Assembly: GCA_964650355.1 (NCBI GenBank)
Contig: CAZYTL010000001.1
Location: forward strand, 4,018-68,017
Direction: 5' to 3'
DNA: 64,000 bases
DNA from: an uncultured Gammaproteobacteria bacterium
GTDB lineage: Bacteria; Patescibacteriota; Microgenomatia; CAYXHB01; CAZYTL01
Position 1 is the first letter of the stretch; every line of letters starts with the position of its first letter. Positions 26,633-58,597 of this stretch are shown piece by piece. The position numbers and the translations under genes were made by a program. The notes below the pieces were generated by a model. The model made no database searches. It was given only the letters and a program-made list of their open reading frames with translations, and had not been told where the DNA came from.

Positions 26633-26640
26633 AGTTTTTC

Positions 26641-29162: not shown

Positions 29163-29200
29163 AGATCTCTTAAATTATATAAAAAATCTGTGAAAAAGTC

Positions 29201-35614: not shown

Positions 35615-35620
35615 ATACAT

Positions 35621-38416
35621 ATGGCACAATCAGAACTACAACTAGAAAACGAATTAATATCTCAACTTAATACATTAGGTTTTGATATTGTTTCTATTCC
35701 CAACGTTGATTCGCTTCATCAGAATTTACAATCTCAACTTGAAAAATTCAATCAAACTAAATTCTCTGATCTTGAATTCTCTCGAATTTTAAACTACTTA
35801 ACTAAGAGTGATCGTTTTCAAAAAGCAAAAACTTTGCGAGATAGATTTGCCCTAAAGCGCGATGATGAAAGCACTTTGTGGGTACGCTTTTTCAACATGG
35901 ATAAGTGGTGTAAGAACGAATATCAAGTTACACATCAGGTTACCCAAGCCGGAAGATATGAGAATCGTTACGACGTAACTTTGCTTATTAACGGTTTGCC
36001 ATTGGTTCAGATTGAACTCAAACGTCGTGGTGTTGAAATGAAAGAAGCGTTTAATCAAATTCAACGCTATCATCGTCATTCTTTCACAGGGACCCTGTTT
36101 GAATATATTCAAGTATTTGTAATTTCTAATGGCGTTAACACTAAATACTTTTCGAATAATCCTAGACAATCATTTGAACAAACATTTTTTTGGACAGATG
36201 TAAACAATAAAAAAATAACTCAACTTAATGAGTTTGCTGATGTGTTTTTAGAAAAATGCTCTTTGTCAGCAATGATCGCTGAATATATTGTTCTTCATGA
36301 ATCACTTAAGATTCCAATGATCTTACGTCCCTATCAGTATTTTGCAGTTAAAGCTATTGAACAACGAGTAAAAGAATCAGATAAAAATGGTTACATTTGG
36401 CACACCACTGGATCTGGAAAAACTTTAACCTCATATAAGGCGAGCCAGATTCTCTCTCAGCTACCGGAAATTAAGAAGGTTTTATTCGTTGTTGATCGAA
36501 AAGATTTAGACATTCAGACCACCAAAGAATTTAATTACTTCTCTGATGGCTCAGTAGATGGTACCGATAACACACGAAATTTAGTTGCTCAACTTAAAGA
36601 TCCAAATCGAAAACTCATAGTTACTACCATTCAAAAACTAGATAGGGCTGTTTCGAGAGAATCATATATTCATCAATTTGAAGCTCTCCAAAATGAAAAA
36701 CTGGTCATTATTTTTGATGAATGTCACCGAAGTCAATTTGGATTAACACATTCAAGAATTAAAGGTGCTTTAAAAAATGCTCAGTTGTTTGGTTTCACTG
36801 GTACGCCAATCTTTGCAGACAACAATGTCGGTGGTGTAACTACCAAAGATGTGTTTGGCGAGTGTCTGCACAAGTACATTATCACTCATGCCATTGATGA
36901 TAATAATGTGCTCGGTTTTGCAGTTGAGTATGTTGGTAAATATAAGAAAAAAGATCAAGATACTTTGGACGCAGATATTTTTGCTGAAACTTTAGTAGAA
37001 GGTATTAATACCAAAGAAGTTCTTGAAAGCGATGAGCGTCTAGAAAAAATTACTGAGTACATTCTTCAAGATTGGAAACGAAAAACTAAAAAAGGTAAAT
37101 TCAACGCAATTTTTGCCACAAGCAATATTAGTGTTTTGAAAAGATACTACAAGTTGTTTGCTGACCAAAAACCTGACGATTTCAAAGTAGCGACAATATT
37201 TACTTATCAAGCCAATGAAGATGATAGCTCCGACATGCTTGACGTTGATATTTTTGCTGGTGAAGGTACTACCGGTAACCAACATTCTAGAGATTTCTTA
37301 GAGTCATGCATAAAAGATTACAACACTCTCTATGGAACAAATTATTCAACTGACCGCTTCTACGACTATTATCGAGATTTACAAAAACGAATTAAAGAAA
37401 AGCAAGTTGATTTAGTTATTGTGGTGAACATGTTCCTAACAGGTTTTGATAGTCCGAGACTCAATACCTTGTTCGTAGATAAAAACCTAAGATATCACGG
37501 TCTAATCCAAGCGTACTCACGTACTAACCGTCTACTTAATTCAGACAAACCACATGGGAATATTGTTTCCTTTAGGAATCTAAAACTAGCCACTGATAAA
37601 GCATTAGCATTGTTTGGTGATGAGAACGCTAAAGAAGTTGTTTTCAAAAAACCGTATGAGATTCAGAAAAAAGAATTTGAACAAAAATTATCAGAAGTAA
37701 AGAAAAAGGTTCCTACTGTAGATTCAGTTGATGATTTGCAGGGAGAAGAAGAAAAGGCTTCATTTGTTAAAAGCTTTAGAGATCTTTTGAGAATTAAATC
37801 CTCTCTAGAAACTTTTGCTGAATTTTCATTTGATGACTTAGGTATATCTGAGCAAGAATTTTATGATTACCAAAGCAAATATCTCGACATTCATGAAGAG
37901 CGCAAAAAACACGATCCTGAAAAGGAATCTATATTAGATCAAATCGACTTTGAGCTTGAACTTACAGTAAGAGATGTTGTTGATTTTGACTATATTATTC
38001 AACTTATTGCTGGGTTGAAAGACATTAGCTCAGATGCTGTTAGAGAAAAGAAGACTGAAGAAATCTTGAAGCTATTTGACCGTGATGTAAAACTTCGCAA
38101 GAAGAAAGAGCTAATCAAGAAATTTATTGAAGAAAATCTTCCCAAGGTTGGTAAAGATGGAAACGTCGAAGAAGCCTTTGAGAAATTCTGGTCAAGTGAA
38201 AGATCTACTGCTTTAAAAGATGTGGCTCAGACTGAAAATATTCCTCTAGAAAAATTTGAACAAGTTATTGGTGAGTACTTGTATACCCAAAAACTTCCAC
38301 ATAGTCAGGACATTATTGATCTACTCCCAGAAGCTCCCAAGATCTTAGAGCGTCAAGGAATCATCGATAGGATTAAAAATGCAATTGAAAATATAGTGGA
38401 TATTTTTGAATGGTAA
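35621..38416 (+). CDS. hsdR: Type I restriction enzyme HsdR (endonuclease/helicase subunit)
   Basis: N-terminal PD-(D/E)xK (DVTLLINGLPLVQIELK), helicase motif I HTTGSGKT, and motif II IIFDECHRS (DECH box). Confidence 0.8.
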   Translation: MAQSELQLENELISQLNTLGFDIVSIPNVDSLHQNLQSQLEKFNQTKFSDLEFSRILNYLTKSDRFQKAKTLRDRFALKRDDESTLWVRFFNMDKWCKNEYQVTHQVTQAGRYENRYDVTLLINGLPLVQIELKRRGVEMKEAFNQIQRYHRHSFTGTLFEYIQVFVISNGVNTKYFSNNPRQSFEQTFFWTDVNNKKITQLNEFADVFLEKCSLSAMIAEYIVLHESLKIPMILRPYQYFAVKAIEQRVKESDKNGYIWHTTGSGKTLTSYKASQILSQLPEIKKVLFVVDRKDLDIQTTKEFNYFSDGSVDGTDNTRNLVAQLKDPNRKLIVTTIQKLDRAVSRESYIHQFEALQNEKLVIIFDECHRSQFGLTHSRIKGALKNAQLFGFTGTPIFADNNVGGVTTKDVFGECLHKYIITHAIDDNNVLGFAVEYVGKYKKKDQDTLDADIFAETLVEGINTKEVLESDERLEKITEYILQDWKRKTKKGKFNAIFATSNISVLKRYYKLFADQKPDDFKVATIFTYQANEDDSSDMLDVDIFAGEGTTGNQHSRDFLESCIKDYNTLYGTNYSTDRFYDYYRDLQKRIKEKQVDLVIVVNMFLTGFDSPRLNTLFVDKNLRYHGLIQAYSRTNRLLNSDKPHGNIVSFRNLKLATDKALALFGDENAKEVVFKKPYEIQKKEFEQKLSEVKKKVPTVDSVDDLQGEEEKASFVKSFRDLLRIKSSLETFAEFSFDDLGISEQEFYDYQSKYLDIHEERKKHDPEKESILDQIDFELELTVRDVVDFDYIIQLIAGLKDISSDAVREKKTEEILKLFDRDVKLRKKKELIKKFIEENLPKVGKDGNVEEAFEKFWSSERSTALKDVAQTENIPLEKFEQVIGEYLYTQKLPHSQDIIDLLPEAPKILERQGIIDRIKNAIENIVDIFEW

Positions 38417-39602
38417 GAAAAATTTTATGAAAATTATAGACGATAAATCATTAGAAGAACTTAAAAATATAGTTCAAGATTGTAATGTAAACTTTTTACT
38501 TGGTTCAGGCATGTCCATGCCCTATCTTTCTACTCTTGGGAAAATTGAACAATTTTTAACAGAACTTGCACAAAAAAAAGAAAAAGGAGAAGTAACAAAC
38601 GAACAAGAAAAGATTATTAGAGTATCTTTGTATAAAAAATTTTTTGATGGCGCAATAGTAAAGAATTTAGATGTTCTAAAAGAAAGTGTTGATGCTAAGA
38701 AGGTATTGGATAACTACGAGAATTTTTTAGTAATTCTTAATTCTATTTTACTTAATAGAAAAAGCAGCATCCTAAATAAACAATTAAATATCTTTACAAC
38801 AAATGTAGATATTTTTTTAGAAAAATCACTGGAAAATACAAACGTAGAATATAACGATGGGTTTAGTGGAAGATTTTCTCCGAAATTTAATTTAACCAAT
38901 TTTAAAAAGTCGTTTTATAAAACTAGTCTTCATTATGACAATGTTTCAGAGCTACCAGTGTTTAATTTAATGAAAATTCACGGCTCACTGACTTGGGATA
39001 AAAGAGAGAAAGAAGATATTTTGTTCTCATCCAAACTAAATATTGTCGATAAAATTAAATCTAAAACAATAACTGGAAATACACTTATTGATATTGATGA
39101 TGAAGAAACAATAGATGAACTTATTACCAAAGCCAATACTAAGACCCCAGATTCGTCAGTAGATGAATTTATAGTTGAATACGAAAAGCTTGCGATTGTA
39201 AATCCGACAAAAGAAAAATTCAGAGAAACTGTTTTAAACAGAAATTATTATGAATTACTCAGGATTTATTCAAATGAACTTGAAAAAGAAAACACAATTC
39301 TTATTGTTGCTGGATTTTCATTCGCTGATGAACATATTCGAGATGTAACAATAAGAGCCGCCAATTCAAATCCAACTTTAAAAATCTATATACTTTCCCA
39401 TTCAAGTGATGCCGACGAAGGATCATTAATAGTCAAAGATAAGTCGATAAACGGCAATGTTGAGATTGTTGTACCACCGCAAAAGCAAGATGATCCTGAA
39501 CAAGAACCAGTAGATGAGTTCAAATATAACTTAAAAAACATAAATGAAAAAATCTTTACAGAATTACTTAAAAAGATTGGTGAGAGAAAAGAAGATAAAT
39601 AA
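38406..39602 (+). CDS. SIR2-family (NAD-dependent deacetylase-fold) defence protein
   Basis: FLLGSGMS (GxGxS Rossmann loop of SIR2), TTNVD (TTNYD-like) and KIHGS (HG catalytic His). The start overlaps the hsdR stop. An alternative start is at 38427. Confidence 0.7.
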   Translation: MNGKKNFMKIIDDKSLEELKNIVQDCNVNFLLGSGMSMPYLSTLGKIEQFLTELAQKKEKGEVTNEQEKIIRVSLYKKFFDGAIVKNLDVLKESVDAKKVLDNYENFLVILNSILLNRKSSILNKQLNIFTTNVDIFLEKSLENTNVEYNDGFSGRFSPKFNLTNFKKSFYKTSLHYDNVSELPVFNLMKIHGSLTWDKREKEDILFSSKLNIVDKIKSKTITGNTLIDIDDEETIDELITKANTKTPDSSVDEFIVEYEKLAIVNPTKEKFRETVLNRNYYELLRIYSNELEKENTILIVAGFSFADEHIRDVTIRAANSNPTLKIYILSHSSDADEGSLIVKDKSINGNVEIVVPPQKQDDPEQEPVDEFKYNLKNINEKIFTELLKKIGERKEDK

Positions 39603-39611
39603 TCCTAAAAC

Positions 39612-41471
39612 ATGAATAGCAAGCAAATACTCAAAGATTCTATATTCAAAGTTGGTAAGGTCATATCAGTTGATGGGCGAATTGTTAGAATAAAGGTTGA
39701 TAAAACAAAGAACTCTTCGAACTTACTATATAATGGCAAGTTGCTTAAAAATATTTCTGTAGGTGGGTATGTAAAAATAATCAAAGGTTTCACAAAGATA
39801 ATTGGCAAGGTCGATGGAGAATATATTAATGAAGAAAAAACCTTTTCAAATAAGGAATATGCAAGCGGAAAAGAAAAAATCAGCCGCGTGCTTAATGTTA
39901 GTTTGTTAGGTTTTTTTGGGGATAAAGGTTTTGAGAGAGGCATAAAAGAATTGCCTTTAATAGACAATGAGTGTTTTTTGCTTGAAAATGAAGAGTTTGG
40001 TTCAGTTCACCATTTTGTTAAAAAAGATGATGAGCCAATAACCGTAGGAAGTCTTTCTTTAGAAAAAGGTCAAGAAATCAAAGTTGGAGTTAATAGTTTG
40101 TTTGCGAGCCATATAGGAATTTTTGGGAATACTGGTAGCGGAAAATCATATACGTTAGCAAAAATTTATAGGGAATTATTTAAAAAGTATGAAGGGAGAG
40201 AAAATTTTCGGAACAATGGTATGTTTCTCTTGTTTGATTTTAATGGAGAATATGCAGATGAGAAGTGCATAATCGAAGGAAAAAAAATTTACAACCTAAC
40301 CACCAAAAAGACACTTAATACAATTAATAATGACGATAAATTTCCATTAAATGAGAATGACTTAATTGATTTGGAGCTTATTTCTATTCTTGCTAACGCA
40401 ACAGAAAAAACTCAGAGACCATTCTTATCCAGATCGTTAGACTTTTATAAAAAAATAAATGATGCCGATGACTCTCTTGAGTTTTTCAAAAATGTTTTAA
40501 AAAAACGGACAAAAGAAGTTCTAAGGATGGCAGATAAAGATAAAGCGCACGTTCTTATCGATTATTTAATTAATATTTTAGAAAAACCAGAAGAAAACTT
40601 AAACGAAGATCTTTTCGCCGCTATCGAATGGAACAATACAAATCATCACTTCATGCCTAGAAATGGCCAAAGCAGAGAATTAACGGATAGCGAAATTGAA
40701 GGAACAATTTTATATACATCCGCTAATAGCTATCAATTTCCCCAAAATATACTTACAAAAGTCATTCATTTTCTATACTTACAAGTAATTTTTGATATTT
40801 ACAACGACAAGGCTCAAAACGAACATATTGCCCCGGCCATTAATAAATTGAAGAGTAAACAAAAAGATATAGAGAAAGTTTTGAATACTAGCAGTACAAC
40901 CAACGACTTCTTTGTAGATAGCAATTTTGTGGTATTGAATCTTAAAGACGTTAATATCGAAATGAGAAAGACATTGCCTCTACTACTATCCAAAAAGGCT
41001 TATTCAGAACATAAACACAAACATAGACGAGATGAGAAGAAGTATTTAAATATTATTATTGATGAGGCTCACAATATATTATCCAAAGAATCTTTTAGAG
41101 AGGCTGAGAGCTGGAAAGATTATCGACTGGAAACATTTGAAGAGATAATTAAAGAGGGGCGTAAGTTTGGGGTCTTTCTAACAATAGCGAGTCAGCGACC
41201 CCATGATATATCCGCGACTATTATTTCCCAGCTGCACAATTATTTCCTACATAGATTGATAAATAATCACGACATTGTGGCTGTAGAAAGAACTATTGCT
41301 TATCTTGATAAATTGTCTGTTGAGTATTTATCTATTTTACCTACTGGTACATGTGTATTAGCAGGTTTGCTTGCACAGGTTCCTGTAGTTATTGATATTG
41401 GCAAAATAGAACCCAAAGAGCACGAACCTAACAATAAAACTATCAACTTAATAGAAAGTTGGAGTGACTGA
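39612..41471 (+). CDS. herA: HerA-like hexameric ATPase/helicase
   Basis: Walker A GIFGNTGSGKSYT, Walker B LNIIIDEAHN, FLTIASQRP, and an N-terminal HAS-barrel-like region. It sits immediately after the SIR2 gene. Confidence 0.75.
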   Translation: MNSKQILKDSIFKVGKVISVDGRIVRIKVDKTKNSSNLLYNGKLLKNISVGGYVKIIKGFTKIIGKVDGEYINEEKTFSNKEYASGKEKISRVLNVSLLGFFGDKGFERGIKELPLIDNECFLLENEEFGSVHHFVKKDDEPITVGSLSLEKGQEIKVGVNSLFASHIGIFGNTGSGKSYTLAKIYRELFKKYEGRENFRNNGMFLLFDFNGEYADEKCIIEGKKIYNLTTKKTLNTINNDDKFPLNENDLIDLELISILANATEKTQRPFLSRSLDFYKKINDADDSLEFFKNVLKKRTKEVLRMADKDKAHVLIDYLINILEKPEENLNEDLFAAIEWNNTNHHFMPRNGQSRELTDSEIEGTILYTSANSYQFPQNILTKVIHFLYLQVIFDIYNDKAQNEHIAPAINKLKSKQKDIEKVLNTSSTTNDFFVDSNFVVLNLKDVNIEMRKTLPLLLSKKAYSEHKHKHRRDEKKYLNIIIDEAHNILSKESFREAESWKDYRLETFEEIIKEGRKFGVFLTIASQRPHDISATIISQLHNYFLHRLINNHDIVAVERTIAYLDKLSVEYLSILPTGTCVLAGLLAQVPVVIDIGKIEPKEHEPNNKTINLIESWSD

Positions 41472-42985
41472 TGAATATGACATTATCTAAATCCGACTAC
41501 ATGCTTTTTCTTCGTCACCCAGCTTGGCTGTGGTTGAAGAAGTTCAACAAAAATAAACTTCCCCCGATTGATGAGGATACGCAGGCTTTATTTGACGCTG
41601 GTCATGAATTTGAAAGTTACACAGAAAAGCTGTTTCCTGATGCCATCCGTTTAGGTTTTAACAATTTCGATGAGTATCTTTCACTACCCAATAAAACCCT
41701 TCAAGAGATTAATAGTGGCACTCAAACTATTTTTCAAGGTCGATTAGAGATAGATGGTTTAACTTGTATTTTTGACGTTTTGCAAAAAGTTGGGGAGAAG
41801 GAATTTGACTTAATTGAAATAAAAGCCACTACCAGAGCTAAGCCAGAACACGAATACGATCTAGCATTTCAACTGTTAGTTTTGGAGAGGTCTGGTTACT
41901 CGGTTAGAAATATTTCTGTTGTTCATGCCAATAAAGAGTATGAGAGAAATGGGGATATAGATCCAAAACTTCTTTGTGACCAAACTAATATCACTGAAAA
42001 AGTAAAAGCTCTGAGAGAAGTAACTGAGCAACAGGTATCTGCAGCTCAGACGATGCTGGGCGAAAAAACAATTCCTGACATTTCTCCTCGGTACGTGAAC
42101 AAAGTTAACATTCCTGGCGTTTCTCAATGGTTCCAAGAATGGCTGGATATCTACAAGATACTGAAACCAAATAATGATCCCTACAATATTTACGAGCTTA
42201 GTTACCCTAGTGCTGAACAAATAGCTAGTTTAGAGGACGAGGGCATAACAAGGATAGCTGATGTGCCTGATGAGTTAGTTTTAAGACCAAAACAATTTGC
42301 TCAAGTAAAAACCACCAGAGAAGATAGGCCAATTTTAGATAAAGAAAAGATCAGAGAATTTTTAGATTCTTTTCAGTACCCACTTTACTTTTTTGATTAT
42401 GAAACGATGTCCTCAGTAGTCCCCGTGTTTGATCGCATGAGCCCTTATAAAGACTATCCATTTCAGTACTCCTTGCACGTTCTTCGATCCCCAGATGCTG
42501 AAGTCGAGCATCATGAATATCTGCATTCGGAGAATTCAAATCCGATGCCAAGACTTCTTAGTCAGCTCACACAAGATATTGGCAATGAAGGCACTGTTCT
42601 CACTTGGAATATGAGTTATGAAAAAGGATGCAATGACCGCATGGTCGCACTATACCCAGAATATTCAGAGTTTTTGGCAGAACTTAACGAGAGAATAAAT
42701 GATCTAATGATTCCATTCTCTGAGATGTGGTATTTCCATAAGGATTTCTTTGGTAGTGCATCAGTTAAAAAAGTAATGCCTGTATTGGCTCCTGAGTTAA
42801 GTTACAAGGAGCTCAATGTTGGCAATGGACTCCTTGCTAGGAGAATGTGGACCCAAACTATTTTAGAAGACAAACACCAAGATCAACGAGATAAAATTAT
42901 GGAGGATTTGAGCAAATATTGCACTCTAGATACATTTGCTATGGTTCGAATTTTGGAGGTATTGAGGGAAATTATTAATGAATAA
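41471..42985 (+). CDS. predicted two-domain nuclease (PD-(D/E)xK-like N-terminus + DEDD/RNase H-like C-terminus; DUF2779-like)
   Basis: N-terminal IFDVL...DLIEIKAT (D...ExK). C-terminal YFFDYETMS (Exo I FDxET) and YCTLD (Exo III YxxxD). Its ATG overlaps the HerA stop (tgaTGAatATGa), which implies translational coupling. Confidence 0.5.
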   Translation: MNMTLSKSDYMLFLRHPAWLWLKKFNKNKLPPIDEDTQALFDAGHEFESYTEKLFPDAIRLGFNNFDEYLSLPNKTLQEINSGTQTIFQGRLEIDGLTCIFDVLQKVGEKEFDLIEIKATTRAKPEHEYDLAFQLLVLERSGYSVRNISVVHANKEYERNGDIDPKLLCDQTNITEKVKALREVTEQQVSAAQTMLGEKTIPDISPRYVNKVNIPGVSQWFQEWLDIYKILKPNNDPYNIYELSYPSAEQIASLEDEGITRIADVPDELVLRPKQFAQVKTTREDRPILDKEKIREFLDSFQYPLYFFDYETMSSVVPVFDRMSPYKDYPFQYSLHVLRSPDAEVEHHEYLHSENSNPMPRLLSQLTQDIGNEGTVLTWNMSYEKGCNDRMVALYPEYSEFLAELNERINDLMIPFSEMWYFHKDFFGSASVKKVMPVLAPELSYKELNVGNGLLARRMWTQTILEDKHQDQRDKIMEDLSKYCTLDTFAMVRILEVLREIINE

Positions 42986-43021
42986 CTGTAATAAGTCATG
43001 ATTGAACTTAAAATAAAATAA

Positions 43022-44113
43022 ATGAAAAATGTTTCATCAATTGTCAGATTTTGCATTCTACTAGCCTTATTATTTGGTTTGATCTATACAAACAAGCAAC
43101 TCGGTGAGACTAATGCACGACTGGAGAAAGTTGAGATCAAGCTTGGCGGTGCAGAAAAAATTGATTGCAACGAAAAGGATTCCATTGAAAAAGTTCGTCA
43201 ATCTGTCGTTAGAATCATCGGGGGAGAAGCTGAAGGATCTGGTTTTGCTATTAAATCAGGTGGAGTAATTCTCACAAATTTCCATGTTATCGAGTTTGAA
43301 CCCACGCCGAAGGTTGTCTTACCAGATAATTCATTCGAAACAGCAGAAGTGCTTATGGCTGATAAAAATGCAGATCTCGCCATAATAAAGATCAATAAAG
43401 AATTGCCTGTTATTTCTTGGGGTGAGCCATCAGAACTTGATCCGGCAGAAGAATTACTTGCCATAGGCTTTCCGTTAGGTGGTCAGCTTAGCGGTGAAGC
43501 ATCGGTTAACAAAGGCTCCCTTTCTGGGCGAAGAAGGTCGAAAGATGTCGGTATCGAGTACTTACAAACTGATACTACTTTGAATCCTGGAGTAAGCGGT
43601 GGGCCTATGATTAATATTTGTGGCGAGGTAGTTGGTATAAACACAGCTGGTCTATCTGGATTAGGCCTTGGTATATCTTCCGACTCAATTAAGCAAAAAT
43701 GGCTTGAAATGGCCACGGCAGAGGATCCATTGGCTGATGTTCAGAAGATTGACTTTAAACCCGAGGAAAGCTCGTTAGAGGCGGTCAGAGCGTTCTATAA
43801 CTACCTCAAGGCTCGCAAACTAGAGAAAGCATTTGATTTGCTGTCAGATAATTTTAAGAAAGGTTATGATTTTGACTACTGGAAACAGGGGTATGAACCC
43901 CTTCTAGACACCAGTGTTATTAAAATCGAGGATGACCCAGAAATAGAAAATAGGGTAATTATCAAGCTGTCAACTAAGGACTTCGTTGATGAGGAAATTG
44001 TTTATAAGTACTTCGAGGGCTATTGGGACGTTAAAGATGTTGATGGTCGCTGGTTGCTTTGGGACCCTGAAATAAAAGAGGTAGATCCAGATTTTCTCTG
44101 GTTCTATGAATAG
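43022..44113 (+). CDS. membrane-anchored/secreted trypsin-like serine protease (S1 family)
   Basis: N-terminal transmembrane/signal helix. Catalytic triad context: TNFHV (His), DLAII (Asp), GVSGGP (Ser). Confidence 0.65.
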   Translation: MKNVSSIVRFCILLALLFGLIYTNKQLGETNARLEKVEIKLGGAEKIDCNEKDSIEKVRQSVVRIIGGEAEGSGFAIKSGGVILTNFHVIEFEPTPKVVLPDNSFETAEVLMADKNADLAIIKINKELPVISWGEPSELDPAEELLAIGFPLGGQLSGEASVNKGSLSGRRRSKDVGIEYLQTDTTLNPGVSGGPMINICGEVVGINTAGLSGLGLGISSDSIKQKWLEMATAEDPLADVQKIDFKPEESSLEAVRAFYNYLKARKLEKAFDLLSDNFKKGYDFDYWKQGYEPLLDTSVIKIEDDPEIENRVIIKLSTKDFVDEEIVYKYFEGYWDVKDVDGRWLLWDPEIKEVDPDFLWFYE

Positions 44114-44146: not shown

Positions 44147-44170
44147 GGATTTACTTATGCCTTCAGGGTT
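44147..44170 (+). repeat. right copy of about 24-bp imperfect direct repeat
   Basis: ggatttacttatgccttcagggtt, with 21 of 24 positions identical to 33036..33060. Confidence 0.55.
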
Positions 44171-44185: not shown

Positions 44186-46564
44186 CTAAAACATTCTTCG
44201 ACTTTGTGTCTTGATTTTGGCCTTCCAAACTTCAAAAATAAATTTATTAACATCTTCTTCGTTTACTAAGCGTACGATGATTTCATTGGATCTTCCCAGC
44301 ATTGGTACTCTGTTGTATCTATCCCTAATGGCCTCTACTAAGCCATAAACTTCCATCATTAGTTGTTTTTCTGTAGGAGATGACAACTTGACTCCGTCAG
44401 GAACATCAGAAAACCATTTATTGGCATAAGCTTTCTCAAATGGTTTGATGAACTCTTTCAGATAGTTAACAATTCCCATTTTATCTTGCTTAAGTGCCAA
44501 TATCCCAATAAAACATGCTCTCTCCATGATTCTGGGTTCTGTAAATCCATAACTATCTCCGGTTTCTTTTGTGAGCATTTTACTTGCAAAATTATTGATT
44601 ATTTTGATTGCGTCCCTGGCGACTTGGTCTTGGTTTTTCTGCAAAGCTCTAATACCAATTTTTGCTGCTGCCTCGACAAGAGAGTCAAGTGATTGATCTT
44701 TCCTAATTTTTTCTACATCGTGAGTAAACCACTCAGTCTGGAAGATGTACCAACCTACTTGTTTTAATAATTCTTCCTTATCTTGTTGCCACTTCTCATC
44801 TTCTGTTAAATCTAAAAGAAGGCATCCGATATCTGCAATTAAGTTTCCAAAAGTGTTCACCAACAAATGGTTGGGGTTTTTCATTTTTTCTGATAGATAG
44901 CGTAGCGTAGAGCGAAGTTCTTCAACAACCACAAAGAAGATTCCTTTCCATTCTTTGCGGTCATCTTCCTTTTTTGCACTATTAGCAGCTTTTGCAATTT
45001 GAAAGATCAAAGATGACGTATTTTCAAATGGGTTGGATAGGTTGGTTTGCATTACGAAGCTGCTGTCTAGAGCTCCCGCCATCATGGAGAGGTAAGCATA
45101 ATAAATTATTTGTCTAAGATGTTCCCACAAAGAACCCAATTCCATCTCTAGGTTGAAGTATTTAGAAGTTATAAGTTGAGTTAATATCGAGTTGTAAGTA
45201 TTAATGACCTCACCTAACACAACATTGTATTTATTTCCCAAAGCACTGAAGGCAATTTTATCGAGCATCCCGTAAATTGAGATGAACTCATAGTGGAGAT
45301 TTTGCTTTATTGCAATAGGAGCTATCTGACCGTAAGCGACTGCACCTTGAAATAAGGCTTCTTGATATTTAAATTTGATCGCGCTTTGAAGTAGTTGATC
45401 GAGGTAACCTCGACACTGTTCCATTATTGGACTTTCTACCTTTCTTTTGGTTAGGTAGTTAATTTGACTAGCAGATTGAGATAATTGGACAAAAATGTTA
45501 ATTACTTGGGTTATTCCCTGGTTATCATTTTCTCGCATATAGTTTTCACCAACGGCAACCAGCCTCTCTAGAGGCGGAGTCAAGAAAGCTCTTGAATCAC
45601 TAGTTGTTGCAAGCACAAATCCTGCAGGTAACACGAAAGAAGAATCTTTTCTAACTTCAAAATATTTTTGCAAAATACTTGTTATTACTTGTAATACTTG
45701 AAGTGCAGAGCTCCTTTCGTTTGTAGACACAAGTCGATCATGGTAATCGAAAAGATAATTTAGCCTGCTATTAATGTAAGCAAATTCTGGCTGCATGTAC
45801 TGAAAAGATGTCGCCAGAGCTTCTTGTTTAGTTACCTTTTTATCTAGCTTTGGTTGTTTCATTAAGACATCAGCTATTTCTTGAGCTCGCTTGTAAATAG
45901 ATTCAATTTTATGAAGAGCTTGCTCTGAAGCGATTTTCAAAACATTGTTAGGGTTCAGCCTAGTCCTAACTCTCTGATAGAGGATAAATGTTAGGTAGAA
46001 AACAAAACCTACTAAAATTAAGGAGAGCTGAAGCGAGGCTGTCGATAGCCCTAATCCAAAATTCCCAAAGAGCAGAGAAAAGGAAAAGACAACCAAGGCA
46101 CAGGCACTAATTAAGAAGAAAATTAAATCATGGACATTATCTTTCGCGGCAGTTTCATAAAACCCTACTGGTATTCTCTCAGCAGCGTTTCCCATAAGCA
46201 AAATGCTCAAAGAAAAAATTATTGCCAAGATTCCACCAATCATAGCTGCTACTGCAGTAAAAAAGGTCAGAGCATCACTTCTGTCAAAGATTGAAATATA
46301 AGGGCCAAGAAAATAAACCAAACAAAGGAGAAGAACAAAATATAACAATCCGCCAAGCAAGTTCCTTTTCGACTTTAAGTAAAGAGACAATCTGTAGCGA
46401 ATAAAATTTAGGATCCTAAGCTTAATCAAGTAGAAATAGAAAACTGCTGTTTTCTTGAGAGATCTCAGCTGACTCAACAACTTTTTCTTGTTTTGAAAAA
46501 ATAATCTACAGACTTTTTTTGAGCCTTTCAAAAATGATTGTTTAGAGGATTTCTTTTTTGCCAT
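44186..46564 (-). CDS. large multi-pass membrane protein with long cytoplasmic domain (candidate defence effector)
   Basis: 792 aa. The N-terminal basic leader is followed by about 4-5 hydrophobic helices, then about 600 aa of soluble domain with no known motif. It is the last gene of an HTH-led operon. Confidence 0.45.
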   Translation of the reverse strand: MAKKKSSKQSFLKGSKKVCRLFFQNKKKLLSQLRSLKKTAVFYFYLIKLRILNFIRYRLSLYLKSKRNLLGGLLYFVLLLCLVYFLGPYISIFDRSDALTFFTAVAAMIGGILAIIFSLSILLMGNAAERIPVGFYETAAKDNVHDLIFFLISACALVVFSFSLLFGNFGLGLSTASLQLSLILVGFVFYLTFILYQRVRTRLNPNNVLKIASEQALHKIESIYKRAQEIADVLMKQPKLDKKVTKQEALATSFQYMQPEFAYINSRLNYLFDYHDRLVSTNERSSALQVLQVITSILQKYFEVRKDSSFVLPAGFVLATTSDSRAFLTPPLERLVAVGENYMRENDNQGITQVINIFVQLSQSASQINYLTKRKVESPIMEQCRGYLDQLLQSAIKFKYQEALFQGAVAYGQIAPIAIKQNLHYEFISIYGMLDKIAFSALGNKYNVVLGEVINTYNSILTQLITSKYFNLEMELGSLWEHLRQIIYYAYLSMMAGALDSSFVMQTNLSNPFENTSSLIFQIAKAANSAKKEDDRKEWKGIFFVVVEELRSTLRYLSEKMKNPNHLLVNTFGNLIADIGCLLLDLTEDEKWQQDKEELLKQVGWYIFQTEWFTHDVEKIRKDQSLDSLVEAAAKIGIRALQKNQDQVARDAIKIINNFASKMLTKETGDSYGFTEPRIMERACFIGILALKQDKMGIVNYLKEFIKPFEKAYANKWFSDVPDGVKLSSPTEKQLMMEVYGLVEAIRDRYNRVPMLGRSNEIIVRLVNEEDVNKFIFEVWKAKIKTQSRRMF

Positions 46565-46570
46565 ATATTG

Positions 46571-47284
46571 CTATTCCAACCAACCAAAATCTTTGTTTAA
46601 ATATTTTTTATCGATTTGGTTGTTTATCTCTTTTCTAACTTTTTCTTTGGATCCGGTTCTTTTTAGTTCCAAAACATTCGGAACTTTGTTTTGTTTATAA
46701 AGAAAAGCAATTTCTCCAACGTTTATATACCCGATTTGGATATCTAGATTCAATACTGTTAAAGAAACGATTGTATCTGGGGTCGTTTGTATGATTTGAA
46801 GAGCCCATACAGCGAATTTTATTTGATGTTTGATCAAAAACTGGTTTACTTCTTGGTAATTAGGTTCTATACCATCTTCAACTTTCACTAGGAGCACGTA
46901 TTGCTCACCGTACTTCGTATATTTTGAGTTAATTTTGTCAGATGACAGAAGTTGTTGTAGTAATGTTTGCCCATTTTTAGCATCGTATCGAGTTAGTTCT
47001 ATTGTCGAAATATCAAAATCTCCCAGACGCTCTTTTGATTCTTGTCCGATGTAACCATCAGGAGGATCTTGTTTAGACACTTGGACAAGGGGCAACTCGT
47101 GCGTTTTTTTGTTCAATGCGTAAATAGCTAAGGCGGTGAGGGAAAGATCGTATGACTCTATTAATTTTTTATATTTTCGCTCTTTCTTTAGTTGTTCTAT
47201 TCCTTTATTTTGAACCAATTCAACACAACACTGATGAATAAAGGCAGGACAGAACCAGATCTTGTTAGGGTGTTTCCATGCCAT
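46571..47284 (-). CDS. hypothetical protein (operon partner)
   Basis: 237-aa ORF spaced 3-6 nt from its neighbours. Confidence 0.4.
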   Translation of the reverse strand: MAWKHPNKIWFCPAFIHQCCVELVQNKGIEQLKKERKYKKLIESYDLSLTALAIYALNKKTHELPLVQVSKQDPPDGYIGQESKERLGDFDISTIELTRYDAKNGQTLLQQLLSSDKINSKYTKYGEQYVLLVKVEDGIEPNYQEVNQFLIKHQIKFAVWALQIIQTTPDTIVSLTVLNLDIQIGYINVGEIAFLYKQNKVPNVLELKRTGSKEKVRKEINNQIDKKYLNKDFGWLE

Positions 47285-47287
47285 AAA

Positions 47288-48022
47288 TTATTTCTTTATA
47301 TAATTTTGTTTATACTTTTTTTGAATTTCTTTTAGACGATACGGCTCGAATCTAGAAAGGTAATCAATAACTAAGGCTACGTGATGCTTAGCATTATTTT
47401 CTACATGGTGATACATCCAAGTTTCGTCATTCAATTTGCCAGAAATTGTGTTGAGTATTTTCTCTATTGTTTTAAATAACTCTTTAACTTCAGCAGCACT
47501 AATACTAGGCAATTTTGGTTTTCTAACGTCGTCGTGAACAAGCCACTTGTCTCGATAGGTTTTCGCTTTTTTGATAGCTTTGTTTTGTTTTTCAAGCATT
47601 TTTCTTATTAAAGCTAGATCTGAATATTGCAAACCTTTGTACCTCTCTGTTAGTTCTTTTAAGAGTTGACGATCTTGATTGTATTCAGTGAAAGCATCAA
47701 TTGTTAAGTGTTTTAGTTTGCTCTCCGTGAAGTTAACAATTTTGTTGATATGCAGTGACTGATCTGATACATCTAGGAGCTTTCCCAATTCAAGGAAAAA
47801 GTAAGTGCGGAGCGCTTCCTGAGTAGGAACAAAAAAATTCCTATATTTATCCATGGTTTTTACATTTGCTTTTGCGCGTGATGGTCCAACAACGTTTGGA
47901 GCTGCAGCTTCCTTCATTCCTTCGTAAGCGTAAAAAGCAGATAGGGCGTGGAAATATCTACTTTGCAACTTCTTGATGTAGGACATTAGGGTTTTGAATT
48001 CTGTATTTTTTGGTTTGGTCAT
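47288..48022 (-). CDS. hypothetical alpha-helical protein with Rx5H (HEPN-like) motif
   Basis: 244 aa. YRDKWLVHDD gives R-x5-H in an all-alpha context, resembling HEPN/AbiU2-type proteins. Confidence 0.4.
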   Translation of the reverse strand: MTKPKNTEFKTLMSYIKKLQSRYFHALSAFYAYEGMKEAAAPNVVGPSRAKANVKTMDKYRNFFVPTQEALRTYFFLELGKLLDVSDQSLHINKIVNFTESKLKHLTIDAFTEYNQDRQLLKELTERYKGLQYSDLALIRKMLEKQNKAIKKAKTYRDKWLVHDDVRKPKLPSISAAEVKELFKTIEKILNTISGKLNDETWMYHHVENNAKHHVALVIDYLSRFEPYRLKEIQKKYKQNYIKK

Positions 48023-48213
48023 GTATTTTTCGTTTTGATAAATTGATCGATAGATTTTGGATCATATCTTCTATCCCCGCGCTCGTTTACTTTAATTGCT
48101 TTTAGTTTTCCGCTCTTATCCCATCGCCTAAGGGTCTCGACATGAACATTCAAAACTTCCGCCGCTTGGCGAATATTTAGTAGTTTCGGTAATGCAATGT
48201 TTTTCTTCGACAT
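48019..48213 (-). CDS. excisionase/MerR-like HTH DNA-binding protein (paralogue of 33174..33386)
   Basis: LLNIRQAAEVLNVHVETLRRWDKSGKLKAIKV. It overlaps the start of the downstream gene by 4 nt. Confidence 0.6.
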   Translation of the reverse strand: MSKKNIALPKLLNIRQAAEVLNVHVETLRRWDKSGKLKAIKVNERGDRRYDPKSIDQFIKTKNT

Positions 48214-48269: not shown

Positions 48270-49922
48270 ATGAGTGCAAAAAAAACTAACAATCATGTAC
48301 CATCGCATAGTGACAACGACTTTACAGATAAAGAGTCAGTAAGTCTTATTGAAAATATTTTAGCTCGCCATAAACGAGTCATGCCGAAGCTGTATTCGAG
48401 CGACAAATGGCCAAATATTGATGGCCATATTGAAGTCCAAGACGCTGGCCATACGTTGGTAGGTCGCTCATTTGTGCAGGCCAAAACCCTCCCAGGCGAT
48501 CATAATTTGAAATTTGCTTGCCCGGTCTCGTTCTTTTCAAGTTGTGAGATAGACCCGTGTTTTTTGTTTGGTGTTGATAATCAAAATGGGAGGGTTTATT
48601 GGCTTTACTTCGATGCTAACGTTATAAAGGAAATTGATTTTGATGGGAACACCTCAACAAAAACAATTGAATTTAATGAATCACAATACTTCGATAAGGA
48701 TAAGACTGATTATATTGAGGAGTGGAAAAAAATCATCAGAGATAACCAACAAAAATTTAAGCAGTATAACGAGCTAAAAGAGTCGTACGAGCTTATTCTC
48801 AGTAGTTCCAATAGAGCCATGGGGAAAACTGATAAAAACTTTTCTAAAATTCATTTGTTTCTTGATGAACTAAATAGAGGACTTGATCATCAATTTCAGA
48901 TAGTAAAAGATATTTTTTACCCAAAAACTTGGAAAATAGGGCTTGCGTACTATAACTATGAAGACACAAAGGTTGCCTACATTTCGTTTCCAATCCCAAT
49001 CGATCAGAATGATGTTCAAATAAAAGAGGTTGATGATGATCTACGAGATAAATTGAAGCAGCAAGGCCTTGGGTTTACTGGACACTTTGCTGAAAACCCT
49101 ATTGAGGTTAGGCCAAGAGAATATGCGAAAGAAATTATAGGTTCAAAAGTGACATCTATCTTGGAGAGGCAACTTCTAAACCACAGAGGGCATGAGTTGT
49201 TGGCTCAAGAAACTGTATTCAACTTCATTAATAGTTACCACGACCACTTAGATTTACCTAAAAAAGACTCTTACCCTCTCGAAGAAGTAAAAAGCAGCAA
49301 AGAATTGATGCGGATGAAAAACACTTCCTTATTATCTATAAACGCAAAACACATCAATCTAAGCATTTTTTGGGAACTCTTAAATTTCTTGGAATCAAAA
49401 CAACTTCCAATCAGCAGAGTGTATAAGGCAAAAGATTTTTCAAGAATTCCCAATGGTGGTTGGGTTTGGAATGTTTTCTCAAAACCGGATACAGAACATA
49501 ACCTAAATATTGTCTTTGATAATCTTTCTTCTGCTTACGAACAGATCATCCTCAATAACTTCCCTTTGCTTAAAAAGGATTTTTCTCTCTTTCAGGAAGC
49601 AAACAAAATTCTCGTCCGCTATAAACTTAAAGAAAAATATACAGATTTCGGATCGGGACCAACTTACGAAATGTTCTATCTCAAAGCGGACAACAATGCT
49701 ACACAAAAATCAATTGAAGTAATAGAAGATAGTGAAGCAAACACCCTTAATAAGTTATTTTATTCTGGTGGTCCATATAAATATGAATATAAAGGTGGTC
49801 GATACACCTTACTTTCGGCACAGCATAGCGTTTTAGATTTTATCTACGATGACACTCCGCTATTTAGCTTAGTGTACGAAATACTAGTTCGAAGAGTTAA
49901 TCAATATTTTGAAAAATCATGA
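48270..49922 (+). CDS. hypothetical 550-aa protein, possible N-terminal PD-(D/E)xK-like motif
   Basis: WPNIDGHIEVQD...FVQAKT is a possible D...E.Q...QAK arrangement, which is weak. The remainder has no recognisable domain. Confidence 0.35.
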   Translation: MSAKKTNNHVPSHSDNDFTDKESVSLIENILARHKRVMPKLYSSDKWPNIDGHIEVQDAGHTLVGRSFVQAKTLPGDHNLKFACPVSFFSSCEIDPCFLFGVDNQNGRVYWLYFDANVIKEIDFDGNTSTKTIEFNESQYFDKDKTDYIEEWKKIIRDNQQKFKQYNELKESYELILSSSNRAMGKTDKNFSKIHLFLDELNRGLDHQFQIVKDIFYPKTWKIGLAYYNYEDTKVAYISFPIPIDQNDVQIKEVDDDLRDKLKQQGLGFTGHFAENPIEVRPREYAKEIIGSKVTSILERQLLNHRGHELLAQETVFNFINSYHDHLDLPKKDSYPLEEVKSSKELMRMKNTSLLSINAKHINLSIFWELLNFLESKQLPISRVYKAKDFSRIPNGGWVWNVFSKPDTEHNLNIVFDNLSSAYEQIILNNFPLLKKDFSLFQEANKILVRYKLKEKYTDFGSGPTYEMFYLKADNNATQKSIEVIEDSEANTLNKLFYSGGPYKYEYKGGRYTLLSAQHSVLDFIYDDTPLFSLVYEILVRRVNQYFEKS

Positions 49923-52890: not shown

Positions 52891-53910
52891 TTAATCACCG
52901 AGTTCGTTCGTAAAGTTGACGAGTTGCCCACCCTGAGTTAAAGTAACTGTCAGTTGAGGAGTATAGTATTCTTTTTTCACCGTTATGCACGGTAATCCCT
53001 CCTCAAAGCTATCAGCATCCTCATTTTTTATATCCGCCCGGCAGGTAGTATAAGGATGATCAAGTTTTCGCTGTTTTCGCTCTCCCTTCCAGGTGAAGAA
53101 AAAGTTTAGGTCCTGGTCGTTTTCACCCTTACTACCGGTCTCAAGTGAGAGCTTAGTTAGATCTATTTTACCGATTGCTTTCTGATGATCCTGAATGAAC
53201 TCTCTAACTAAGATTTCAGCTTCAGCCAGGTTGTAACGAGGTGTGTAATCATATTCTTTTTGGGGACTAAACCAATGAGAACCATCTTTATTTTTACCCC
53301 AGTTGCCTTCTTTGGGAGACATTTCAACTACAAGATTTGTTTCTGTATCGATAATAAACCGGTCAAAATCCACGAGATAACTTTCAACTCTTATATGTTC
53401 TTCATCGTTGTCATTGGGATTTCTAATGCACTCATAAGTGACGTTAGCATCCGGCCTGTCGAGAAACTCTCTGACAGCCGCCACAGACTTCTCTTGTTCC
53501 TCAGCCGGTCTCGCGCTTACTGAACACCATTCTTGTTGAGCCTGTTTGTATTTCTGGCTATTTTTATCCCTGTAGTCAGGATCATTTGTAAGTAGTGATG
53601 TAAGCTCCTCTTGTAATTGATTTCTAAGACTTATGAGTGCATCAATAATTGATCCCTTGGCTGAAACGGGAGACTTTGTACTCAAAAAACCAACAAATAA
53701 GATTACCAAAGCTATGGATGCGAAAGCCAAAGGCAATCGAAATGACCAAAATGGATTTGGGGGAGGAGAGAATGTTTTGTTCAGATTTTCTTCAAGTTGC
53801 TTTTCTTCCCTAATTCTTTCGAGAATCTGTCTTTCCAAAACACTAATGTGCTTGAACTCTTTTTTACTCTCTTTGAGAAAATATGATCTAATAATGTTTT
53901 TTAGTTTCAT
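52891..53910 (-). CDS. anti-sigma factor-like single-pass membrane protein
   Basis: Cytoplasmic N-terminus, one transmembrane helix (LAFASIALVILFVGFL), and an extracytoplasmic domain. Its start overlaps the stop of the ECF sigma gene by 4 nt. Confidence 0.5.
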   Translation of the reverse strand: MKLKNIIRSYFLKESKKEFKHISVLERQILERIREEKQLEENLNKTFSPPPNPFWSFRLPLAFASIALVILFVGFLSTKSPVSAKGSIIDALISLRNQLQEELTSLLTNDPDYRDKNSQKYKQAQQEWCSVSARPAEEQEKSVAAVREFLDRPDANVTYECIRNPNDNDEEHIRVESYLVDFDRFIIDTETNLVVEMSPKEGNWGKNKDGSHWFSPQKEYDYTPRYNLAEAEILVREFIQDHQKAIGKIDLTKLSLETGSKGENDQDLNFFFTWKGERKQRKLDHPYTTCRADIKNEDADSFEEGLPCITVKKEYYTPQLTVTLTQGGQLVNFTNELGD

Positions 53911-54407
53911 ATCAGTGATTCTTTCAATTTGACGACTGCTCTATAAAAACGCATTTTCACTGCTGGCTCTTTAGAGTCGAGAGCGGTGGCAATATCGCAA
54001 AACTGCATCTCCTCATTAACCCTAAGCCTGATTATTTCCTGTTCAACCGGCTTTAGTTTTTTGAGTGCTGCCGTAACTTTTTTAATATCTTCCTCTTGAG
54101 TAATTTTGGCCTCTAGTAAGACTTCCACATCGCTGTCATCAAATAGTTGAATATTGTTTTGCTCAATTGAAAGATGATGCTTATTTGCTCTAAACATATC
54201 TGTAATTACATGTCTGCAGATGGTAAGTAACCAGCTCTTGAGCTGTCCTTCACTTTTAAATTTGAAATTGTCGTATGCTTTCATAGCTTTTAAAAATGTT
54301 TCCTGGACAGCGTCATCAACGTCGTCCTGTTGGGACAAGGACTTTTTAGCAAAAAAATATACTAATCTTATGTAGTCCCGGACTACATCTTCAAAAGGTG
54401 GTTTCAT
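53907..54407 (-). CDS. ECF-type sigma-70 family sigma factor
   Basis: Region 2 (AVQETFLKAMKAYDNF) and a region-4 HTH (EEMQFCDIATALDSKEPAVKMRFYRAV). Confidence 0.65.
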   Translation of the reverse strand: MKPPFEDVVRDYIRLVYFFAKKSLSQQDDVDDAVQETFLKAMKAYDNFKFKSEGQLKSWLLTICRHVITDMFRANKHHLSIEQNNIQLFDDSDVEVLLEAKITQEEDIKKVTAALKKLKPVEQEIIRLRVNEEMQFCDIATALDSKEPAVKMRFYRAVVKLKESLI

Positions 54408-55002: not shown

Positions 55003-55224
55003 TCAAAGCTCAACAGCACTTTGTTTCTTGGACATTTCACCGGCACTACCTCCATTTTCAGGCATGATTCTTCGTTGTTCGGTCACTTCTTTTCTGAAAG
55101 GTTTCCCATTTTGAATAAAAACTTCAACTCTCCCAAATTTCACCTGACGTATATCTTCAATTATTTTCCTTTCAGCTTTGCTGAGAATTATTTGATTGGT
55201 AGTTTGTTTATTTGTTTGGCTCAT
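55003..55224 (-). CDS. small hypothetical protein
   Basis: 73-aa ORF that overlaps the stop of the large terminase gene. Confidence 0.25.
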   Translation of the reverse strand: MSQTNKQTTNQIILSKAERKIIEDIRQVKFGRVEVFIQNGKPFRKEVTEQRRIMPENGGSAGEMSKKQSAVEL

Positions 55225-57337: not shown

Positions 57338-58597
57338 TTAATTCAGTTTGAGACGTTGAGTTCTCTTGCGAATCAGGTCACAAAACTTTTCATCTCGCTC
57401 CATCAGGTAGGCAGTTCGACCTACTTTATGTGCAGCCATAAGAGTACTTCCTGAGCCTCCGAATAAATCGAGGACTATTTGTCCGCGCCTACTACCGCCT
57501 TTAATTGCCTTCATAATCAGCCATTCAGGTTTTTCTGTTGGATGGACCATTTCAGTTACTGCTTTTCTTGGCATATTCCAGACATCACTTTCATTTGTCT
57601 CTCCGGTAAAAACGTGCTTTTCTCCTTGCTTCCATCCGTAAATAATTCCCTCAGCTTTGGTTTTACCTTTACCTTTTTTACCTTTCATAATCTGTTCATA
57701 TTGTTTCTTGTAGTCGCTCCAGCCAACTGCAAAAGAGGGTTTAACCCAAACAATGGCACTACTAAATACAAACCCAGAGTTAAGCATTTGGTAGTAAAAC
57801 AACGGATAGGAAGTGTAGCCAGTGCAGACATAAATAATTCCTCCAGGCTTAAGAGATTCGTGCATGGTTGTGAAAAAACCATAGGTGAATTTTTTGAAGT
57901 CTTCTTCGTTTTGGTCATCGCCAAGAATAATTCCTTTTTCAGTATGGAATTTGCCCTGTTTTTCTTTGCTAGTATGAGCAACGTTATAAGGGGGATCTGT
58001 GAACACCATGTCTGCAGATTTATCGCCCATTAGTTTTTTTACGTCCTCTAAGTTCGTAGAATCGCCACACATGAGCCGATGAGGACCAACTTGGTATACC
58101 TCCCCATATTTTGAAATGGGGTCTGTTATTTGTTTGATTTCTTCCTCTGTATCCCAAGGTTTTTCTTCTTCTTGTTCCAGAAGCATGGTTGTATCTAAAA
58201 GATTGCTTACTTCTACTTCGTTAAAACCTGTAATAGAAATATCAAAGTCTGATTGAGTGAGGTCTGTTATTATTTGGGCGAGTTTTTCTTCATCCCATTG
58301 ATCTTCAATCTTATTAAGAGCAAGGTTTAGTGCCTTTTCCTTTTGTAGTGGAATATCAACGGAACTGAAGGGAATCTCTGTCCAACCTAACTCTGTTGCC
58401 GCACGTACTCTTTTTTCGCCACCCACGATGACATTTTCTCTGCCTTTGCGAGTATTAATAACAATAGGCAAGGGACACCCGAACTCCTGAAGTGAGCGCT
58501 TTAATTGTTCAATAACACTCCTGGTTACTTTACGAGGATTGTATTCCGCAAATCTGAGTGAACTTATAGCTATGGTTGGGTATGTTTTTTCAGTCAT
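57338..58597 (-). CDS. ParB-like nuclease domain fused to DNA N6-adenine/N4-cytosine methyltransferase
   Basis: N-terminal ParB motif VIVGGEKRVRAA. Methyltransferase motif IV VFTDPPY. C-terminal motif I LDLFGGSGSTLMAA. Confidence 0.7.
   Translation of the reverse strand: MTEKTYPTIAISSLRFAEYNPRKVTRSVIEQLKRSLQEFGCPLPIVINTRKGRENVIVGGEKRVRAATELGWTEIPFSSVDIPLQKEKALNLALNKIEDQWDEEKLAQIITDLTQSDFDISITGFNEVEVSNLLDTTMLLEQEEEKPWDTEEEIKQITDPISKYGEVYQVGPHRLMCGDSTNLEDVKKLMGDKSADMVFTDPPYNVAHTSKEKQGKFHTEKGIILGDDQNEEDFKKFTYGFFTTMHESLKPGGIIYVCTGYTSYPLFYYQMLNSGFVFSSAIVWVKPSFAVGWSDYKKQYEQIMKGKKGKGKTKAEGIIYGWKQGEKHVFTGETNESDVWNMPRKAVTEMVHPTEKPEWLIMKAIKGGSRRGQIVLDLFGGSGSTLMAAHKVGRTAYLMERDEKFCDLIRKRTQRLKLN

Follow-up and report, generated by a model that had tools for sequence, protein, structure and literature searches.

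We examined a four-gene operon on the minus strand of a 64,000-nucleotide (nt) stretch of DNA, referred to here as the window (positions 4,018 to 68,017 of contig CAZYTL010000001.1, GenBank assembly GCA_964650355.1, from an uncultured bacterium placed in the Patescibacteriota by GTDB). Coordinates are those of the window unless a related locus is named. The genes, taken from the open reading frame (ORF) listing and from Pfam searches, encode a helix-turn-helix (HTH) protein, a HEPN_AbiU2 family protein of 244 amino acids (aa), a 237-aa protein predicted to resemble restriction endonucleases (REases), and a 792-aa membrane protein whose relatives, hereafter the 792 family, recur at the ends of restriction-modification (R-M) operons. 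An earlier reading of the sequence alone, the original prediction, had described the last three genes as an operon within a defence island. The features of the operon are as follows.

48263-48235, minus strand: sigma-70-like promoter match (ATTACA-17-TATATT), directly 5' of the HTH gene, 9 of 12 consensus positions
48213-48019, minus strand: HTH gene, 64 aa
48022-47288, minus strand: HEPN_AbiU2 family gene, 244 aa
47284-46571, minus strand: gene for the predicted REase-like protein, 237 aa
46564-44186, minus strand: gene for the predicted membrane solenoid, 792 aa

All four ORFs are full length and intact, and they retain their conserved motifs. The HTH gene overlaps the 244-aa gene by four nucleotides (ATGA), and gaps of 3 nt and 6 nt separate the 244-aa from the 237-aa gene and the 237-aa from the 792-aa gene, respectively. 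The tight, co-directional spacing that the original prediction reported is thus confirmed (-4, 3 and 6 nt). No terminator-like sites were found between the four genes. The promoter match is weak and can be called plausible at best, as the region holds fewer such matches than shuffled versions of it. Mod/Res and Hsd genes are absent among the four, so the operon itself is not an R-M operon.

The 792-aa protein has four transmembrane (TM) segments by Kyte-Doolittle analysis (residues 69-87, 105-123, 147-165 and 177-195), followed by a basic stretch. Its N-terminal tail (residues 1-66) contains 20 lysine or arginine residues and no aspartate or glutamate. The basic tail, the four TM segments and the basic stretch together argue for an N-in/C-in topology with a cytoplasmic C-terminal domain of ~590 aa, in good agreement with the 4-5 TM helices and ~600-aa cytoplasmic domain anticipated earlier. 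In an AlphaFold2 model (pLDDT 82.8, pTM 0.76) residues 205-780 form an unbroken stack of helical hairpins, and the ~590-aa domain is therefore predicted to be a HEAT/ARM-like alpha-solenoid. Structure matches in BFVD are to generic repeat proteins, with TM-scores of 0.1-0.2, and a sequence-profile search of the PDB returned only noise. Nothing usable was obtained from Pfam, NCBIfam, PADLOC or PHROGs, and neither this protein nor the 237-aa protein has a match in PADLOC-DB v2 at E <= 1. An assignment as an HD-phosphohydrolase, suggested by a DYHD sequence at residues 273-276, was dropped since H275 is not conserved across the family at large and the protein has no second His/Asp set.

An exhaustive profile search for the 792 family returned 808 cluster representatives (50% identity), 188 of them below 1e-30, and nearly all are 750-830 aa in length. 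The only named family with any similarity is DUF2254 (PF10011), which gives weak matches in 8 of 38 diverse relatives. These matches cover profile positions 15-159 of 368, the membrane part; the best is 1.5e-6, and the relative P0063 scores 19 bits against a cut-off of 28.8. The 792-aa protein of the window itself has no DUF2254 match at E <= 1. The remote signal suggests that the four-TM N-terminal module of the wider family is DUF2254-like. However, the C-terminal ~590-aa solenoid is unrelated to DUF2254, which is itself uncharacterised. Among homologues at least 67% identical to the window protein, TM2 and residues 250-450 are the best conserved (82-92%), in comparison with 21-42% identity in the N-terminal basic tail and 50-70% in the C-terminal third. 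The variable parts (residues 1-100 and 500-792; window 44186-45065 and 46265-46564) could mark a diversifying recognition surface, judging from the sequence comparison. No description of the 792 family was found in the literature on DUF2254 and on R-M-linked membrane accessory genes. Apart from the remote DUF2254-like module, the family appears to be undescribed and its terminal position in R-M operons unreported in the libraries and literature searched.

We called and clustered the genes at ~50 loci around homologues (designated L001, L002 and so on), which represent ~22 distinct contexts. The 792 family is the constant element across these loci. With few exceptions its gene closes a co-directional operon or stands one place before the end, lying -8 to +21 nt from the gene upstream in most cases, and in relatives it is translationally coupled. 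The operon types, with the identity of their 792 homologues to the window protein where it was determined by type, are the following.

Type III R-M (N6_N4 Mod with ResIII/RE_endonuc Res): L001-3, L009, L011, L014, L022, L026/29, L027 and L041; at least 67%
Type I R-M (HsdM/S/R): L007, L012, L013, L015, L017, L031 and L037/38; 48-50%, with another Type I arrangement at ~33%
Helicase with Eco57I-type methylase: L018/19; ~40%
Smaller sets headed by DUF4238 (L004; ~45%), by ThsB-TIR (L032) or by SNase (L040)

The gene beside the 792 gene very often encodes a small nuclease-type protein. Neighbours include the 237-aa family (window, L006/8, L027 and L041), NOV_C, PDDEXK_1/Cas4, NucS_C/YhcG, Mrr_cat, HEPN_Cthe2314, SNase, DUF4238, ThsB_TIR (E 2e-24) and a 460-aa family, c23, with a conserved C-terminal Rx4H motif. 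When the 792 homologues are clustered, the clades follow operon type, which points to durable co-inheritance and not to chance adjacency. The window protein itself falls in the Type III R-M-linked clade, although its operon has neither Mod nor Res.

The 244-aa protein matches the Pfam model HEPN_AbiU2 (PF18734) with an E value of 9.3e-14 and 51.8 bits, well above the cut-off of 26.8. The alignment extends over residues 56-214, corresponding to profile positions 33-189 of 193. The RDKWLVH sequence singled out by the original prediction as a candidate HEPN-like motif is indeed the HEPN motif, and both residues of the Rx5H dyad (R157-DKWLV-H163) are invariant in 26 homologues that share 42-70% identity. 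The 110 homologous clusters all carry the PF18734 annotation, and nearly all come from assemblies of Patescibacteria type. The protein is thus clearly a HEPN_AbiU2 member and, from its sequence, a predicted RNase. The original prediction found no match to any named system for the three genes. This no longer applies to the 244-aa protein, as AbiU2 is a named family, but it stands for the 237-aa and 792-aa proteins, which match no PADLOC model.

AbiU2 takes its name from the AbiU abortive-infection locus of Lactococcus lactis. The window protein resembles AbiU2 in passing the Pfam model, in its invariant Rx5H motif and in its defence context. In the survey of HEPN proteins by Anantharaman et al. 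(PMC3710099), AbiU2 is listed as occurring 'in R-M operons', and L041 is such a case, with AbiU2 inside an R-M operon. However, the partners given in that survey are Sel1-repeat or Bxe_C0808 proteins, whereas in the window AbiU2 is accompanied by a predicted REase-fold protein and a predicted membrane solenoid. AbiU2 homologues elsewhere precede unrelated genes. A toxin-antitoxin pair of AbiU2 and the 237-aa protein was ruled out, as the gene after AbiU2 varies between a 270-aa Rx4H protein, a 209-aa protein and Mod.

Two families at the related loci have conserved Rx4H motifs without a Pfam match: c23 (460 aa; L014 5857-7239 and L022 8545-9927), with FNRHKIIHG, and c99 (~270 aa; L022 3724-4527, L024 1531-2376 and L042 6759-7571), with DRHSFIHR. 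From these motifs, both may be unrecognised HEPN families. In L042, c99 lies directly 3' of AbiU2 and may correspond to the 'Bxe_C0808 HEPN in operon with AbiU2' of PMC3710099.

The 237-aa protein has no match in Pfam, NCBIfam, PADLOC or PHROGs, a PDB sequence-profile search with it gave only noise, and hhalign comparison with a NOV_C neighbour gave a probability of 0.1. Its AlphaFold2 model is confident (pLDDT 82.8, pTM 0.84). Two invariant acidic residues, D76 just ahead of strand 2 and E96 within strand 3, occupy the places expected for the acidic residues of PD and (D/E)xK. The lysine position of (D/E)xK is an invariant threonine (Thr98) in this family, and K134 is not retained in the L041 homologue. 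The model makes a divergent REase-like PD-(D/E)xK alpha/beta fold probable, with D76 and E96 as candidate active-site residues. With 12 homologous clusters the family is small, and on the basis of the predicted fold it would be a new REase-like family. The AbiU2 homologue P0098 and the 237-aa homologue P0066 were considered as a pair on one 2,273-bp contig, and this was ruled out because that locus, L050, has no AbiU2 and another gene follows its 237-aa homologue.

The 64-aa protein belongs to the MerR/excisionase type of HTH proteins (Pfam HTH_17, 8e-11; MerR_1, 2e-9) and scores 30.6 bits against the NCBIfam model 'excise', just above the cut-off of 28.8. Its family, c1, is the first gene in 12 related operons and is sometimes fused to HNH_5, and the protein is probably the regulator of the operon. 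It also matches PADLOC mad1 (1e-12). Membership of the MADS system was ruled out, as mad1 is matched by the HTH protein alone, the 244-aa, 237-aa and 792-aa proteins match no mad model, and the score with the NCBIfam model MADS1 is 12.6 bits, where the cut-off is 80. The fused forms, found in Type III R-M-linked operons (L001 2720-4000, L011 3653-4939 and L026 4640-5920), consist of the HTH, HNH_5 and ~300 further residues (426-428 aa).

The closest relative of the operon, L041, has the order HTH-AbiU2-Mod-Res-237-like-792-like in one operon. Compared with the window, identity is 74% for the HTH protein, 70% for AbiU2, 31% (E 3e-29) for the 228-aa counterpart of the 237-aa protein and 70% for the 803-aa counterpart of the 792-aa protein. 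The window thus contains the shell genes of L041 without Mod and Res. It is not the product of a recent Mod-Res deletion, given the low identity of the two 237-family proteins. The 237-aa protein is closest to its homologue in L006 (73%), where, as in L008, an R-M-less HTH-237-806 operon lacks AbiU2. The HTH protein and AbiU2 have their nearest counterparts in L041, but the 237-aa protein has its own in L006, and the operon is thus a mosaic produced by recombination. Neither the AbiU2 nor the 237-aa gene is present at most 792 loci, and L050 has a 237-aa homologue and no 792 gene. AbiU2-237-792 was found together only in the window among the ~50 related loci. The three genes are therefore not a conserved unit, contrary to the original prediction, which had made its proposal depend on their conservation.

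The observed family assignments, protein architecture, gene linkage, mosaic structure and location on a mobile element lead us to favour, tentatively and at somewhat less than even confidence, a modular operon directed against phages or other mobile genetic elements and carried as prophage-like cargo, in which the 792-aa protein is a membrane sensor or scaffold linked to R-M systems and nucleases. We infer the enzymatic activities, the sensor and effector roles and the protection from phage in what follows. The operon is assembled from independently recombining parts, and the HTH protein, whose gene opens it, would be its regulator. AbiU2 would have the role that PMC3710099 proposes for HEPN proteins in R-M operons, serving as a latent RNase in abortive infection. 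The 237-aa and 792-aa genes would form a two-gene module of a small REase-fold protein and a membrane-anchored solenoid. The solenoid, tethered to the membrane, would serve as a sensor or scaffold, acting together with the small nuclease encoded beside it and, in relatives, also with the restriction enzyme. On the cytoplasmic side of the membrane it may respond to an ejected phage protein, to incoming DNA or to the failure of the linked restriction enzyme. It would then license its nuclease neighbour, and perhaps the four-helix membrane domain of its own, to form a back-up behind restriction.

Several points weigh against this explanation. The sampled loci are phylogenetically clustered and come mostly from Patescibacteria metagenomes. 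No catalytic or ligand-binding fold was recognised in the 792-aa protein, whose structural matches are all generic helical repeats, and the sensor or scaffold role is argued from architecture and context only. At L050, a 237-aa homologue of 78% identity is followed by a different gene. In L020/35 and L048 the 792 family occurs without a nuclease or R-M gene beside it, so that it may act alone and the adjacency seen elsewhere may only reflect the crowding of defence genes on mobile elements.

These last loci also bear on a second explanation, doubtful in our view but with a real chance of being correct, in which three self-sufficient defence or addiction genes are merely co-transcribed, gathered behind a single promoter because such genes accumulate at hotspots of mobile elements. 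The 792-aa protein would then bring about abortive infection unaided, its solenoid acting as the sensor and its four helices as an effector that disrupts the membrane. Each gene is indeed found without the others, AbiU2 with other partners, the 237-aa gene without 792 in L050 and 792 alone in L020/35 and L048, and the mosaic identities are those expected from independent recombination. However, the overlaps or gaps of 1-21 nt upstream of the 792 gene recur across very different operons and the 792 clades correlate with partner type, and both observations point to functional coupling beyond shared location.

R-M systems are the commonest prokaryotic defence. To our knowledge, little is known of the accessory genes that travel with them, save for a few HEPN cases such as PrrC, and very few defence systems and phages of Patescibacteria have been characterised. 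The combination of HEPN proteins and R-M has been described as 'multi-pronged defence', in which a latent toxin gene, inherited together with the R-M operon that contains it, is proposed to fire when restriction fails (PMC3710099). Like PrrC-EcoprrI and RloC, several relatives of the operon (L041, L014, L022, L007 and L013) embed HEPN genes in R-M operons. However, the ABC-ATPase/anticodon-nuclease architecture is absent here, the operon of the window lacks R-M genes, and the constant partner, a membrane solenoid, is without a parallel in PrrC systems.

In Zorya (ZorAB with ZorC/D/E) and Kiwa (KwaA/KwaB), a membrane part perceives infection and a cytoplasmic nuclease-type partner executes the response. 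The logic proposed here of membrane sensing with a nuclease partner is similar, by analogy and not homology. The topology and solenoid of the 792-aa protein are unlike the MotA-like ZorA and the small KwaA, and the locus belongs to none of the systems in PADLOC, MADS, Zorya and Kiwa included. The family of the first gene of the triplet, AbiU2, and the kind of context are known, and what is new is the 792 membrane partner of an R-M/HEPN-type multi-layer defence operon on a mobile element.

The observation of wider interest is that the 792 family recurs at the end of R-M operons, whether Type I, Type III or IIG-like, with swappable nuclease, HEPN or TIR neighbours. A bolder extension of the favoured explanation, which we consider rather unlikely, is that the family is a widespread new defence component, a HEAT-like solenoid physically coupled to Type I, III and IIG-like enzymes and to swappable nuclease or NADase effectors, and forms a checkpoint at the inner membrane. 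Such a checkpoint would position or license nucleases where DNA enters, or guard the R-M complex and provide back-up once it is disabled by a phage. In that case the HTH-AbiU2-237-792 operon would represent the system in minimal form, free of R-M genes and convenient for dissection. A functional coupling would provide restriction with a further layer based at the membrane and give a handle on immunity in Patescibacteria; otherwise the locus is another mosaic of abortive-infection-type genes on a prophage. The R-M-free window and the R-M-containing L041 are paired variants suited to side-by-side tests.

The window has the appearance of a phage or prophage genome from a host of Patescibacteria type, and its capsid and portal are of the SU10/podophage type. 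The genes adjoining the operon are defence genes, as the original prediction stated. However, the setting fits prophage-like cargo better than it fits a chromosomal defence island. The genes of this element are listed below.

3448-4518, minus strand: M23 peptidase
4522-9924, minus strand: LPD38 giant protein
14721-16385, minus strand: amidase
18812-19978, minus strand: SU10-type major capsid protein (tblastn match to podophage capsids)
31060-32967, minus strand: SU10-type portal
53907-54407: ECF sigma factor
55208-56764, minus strand: terminase large subunit (TerL)
57338-58597, minus strand: ParB-methylase
59429-60526: C5-methyltransferase

Cargo occupies ~22 kb between TerL and portal, where the operon lies, and ~11 kb between the portal and capsid genes; both intervals are an unusual place for defence genes. 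An SU10-portal-like gene also occurs downstream of the 792-family gene at related loci (L001 10584-12473, with equivalents in L009, L011, L026 and L028).

This setting raises a third explanation, in which the 792-aa protein is a phage-encoded inner-membrane protein for prophage superinfection exclusion that blocks injection or entry of the DNA of competing phages, and the adjacent nucleases and R-M genes are unrelated cargo. The 792 gene lies between terminase and portal, it precedes an SU10-portal-like gene by ~150-170 nt in 8 loci, and a membrane protein with a large cytoplasmic face would suit interference at DNA entry. A syntenic contig is present in IMG/VR, and in L034 a terminase-small-subunit-like gene stands just upstream of the 792 homologue. 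However, a search of 50,697 sequenced phage genomes (INPHARED) gave no match to the 792 family, and three scans of IMG/VR yielded only the one contig. Many members are in R-M operons without phage genes, flanked by serine recombinases or type IV secretion system genes, and the neighbours in L001 are cellular. We therefore regard superinfection exclusion as improbable. It is still less probable that the operon is a decayed Type III R-M remnant that lost its defence function along with Mod and Res, for although its 792-aa protein is in a clade otherwise linked to Type III R-M and L041 has the same four genes with Mod-Res, its ORFs are intact with conserved motifs, independent R-M-less operons exist in L006 and L008, and the divergence of the 237-family proteins of window and L041 excludes a recent deletion derivative.

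The terminase-small-subunit-like gene of L034 (178-531) matches Pfam Terminase_2 at 4e-5, just below the cut-off, and is 48 nt upstream of a 792 homologue of 36% identity, a second hint of phage carriage. In L001 the portal-like gene is followed by cellular genes (an MFS transporter, AlaX and histidine biosynthesis), without a capsid gene in the vicinity; it may be a lone retained or domesticated portal.

The IMG/VR contig (UViG_3300025010_001927) corresponds to L026/L029, which is syntenic with the window and has the order 550-aa, HTH-HNH, Mod, Res, 803 aa, portal, HEPN_LA2681-TPR. Identity to the window is 87% for the 550-aa protein, 68-70% for the 803-aa protein, 86% for the portal and 82% for HEPN_LA2681-TPR. 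DNA similarity is lost inside the HTH gene just past the HTH domain and regained at the start of the 792 gene, which indicates that the cassette from HTH to 792 has been exchanged. The 550-aa gene (window 48270-49922, plus strand; L001 1028-2662; L026 2915-4582) is divergent from the HTH gene. Its product is 86-87% identical in the syntenic loci and has no match in any family library, and the gene is a conserved flank of the variable cassette. P2/P4-type hotspots likewise have conserved flanks around interchangeable defence cassettes on a temperate-phage backbone. Here the cassette is flanked by the 550-aa and HTH genes at one end and by the 792 and portal genes at the other. The site differs from those hotspots in lying between the terminase and portal of a Patescibacteria-type element, and one flank, 792, itself seems to be defence machinery.

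In the window, the spacer between 792 and portal contains a block of plus-strand genes (33392-44113) encoding Type I R-M, SIR2-HerA, a DUF2779 nuclease and a trypsin-like protease. The genes located individually are these.

33392-35614, plus strand: Type I HsdM
35621-38416, plus strand: Type I HsdR
38406-39602, plus strand: SIR2_2
39612-41471, plus strand: HerA (PADLOC HerA, E 1e-182)
43022-44113, plus strand: membrane-anchored trypsin-like protease, convergent with the 792 gene

The block is bracketed by a 23-nt direct repeat, GGATTTAYTTATGCCTTCAGRGT, at 33036-33058 and 44147-44169 (21 of 23 positions identical). These are the only two copies in the window, and none is expected by chance. Related contigs without the block have a single 792-portal spacer of 154-171 nt in which the equivalent sequence occurs once. 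The block is a discrete 11.1-kb insertion in the 792-portal spacer with att-like or target-duplication ends, and the R-M and SIR2-HerA genes beside the operon are thus a separate acquisition. The protease is 76% identical to a 527-aa protein of L024 (7296-8879) that lies three genes 3' of a 792 homologue on the same strand, so that this neighbourhood, too, recurs.

The cargo between the portal and capsid genes (22659-30763) contains further candidate defence modules.

22659-23696: reverse transcriptase
24689-26632: AAA_5 MoxR-like ATPase
27066-29162: VWA/CobT protein
29201-30763: HEPN_LA2681-TPR, conserved in L026 at the identity given above

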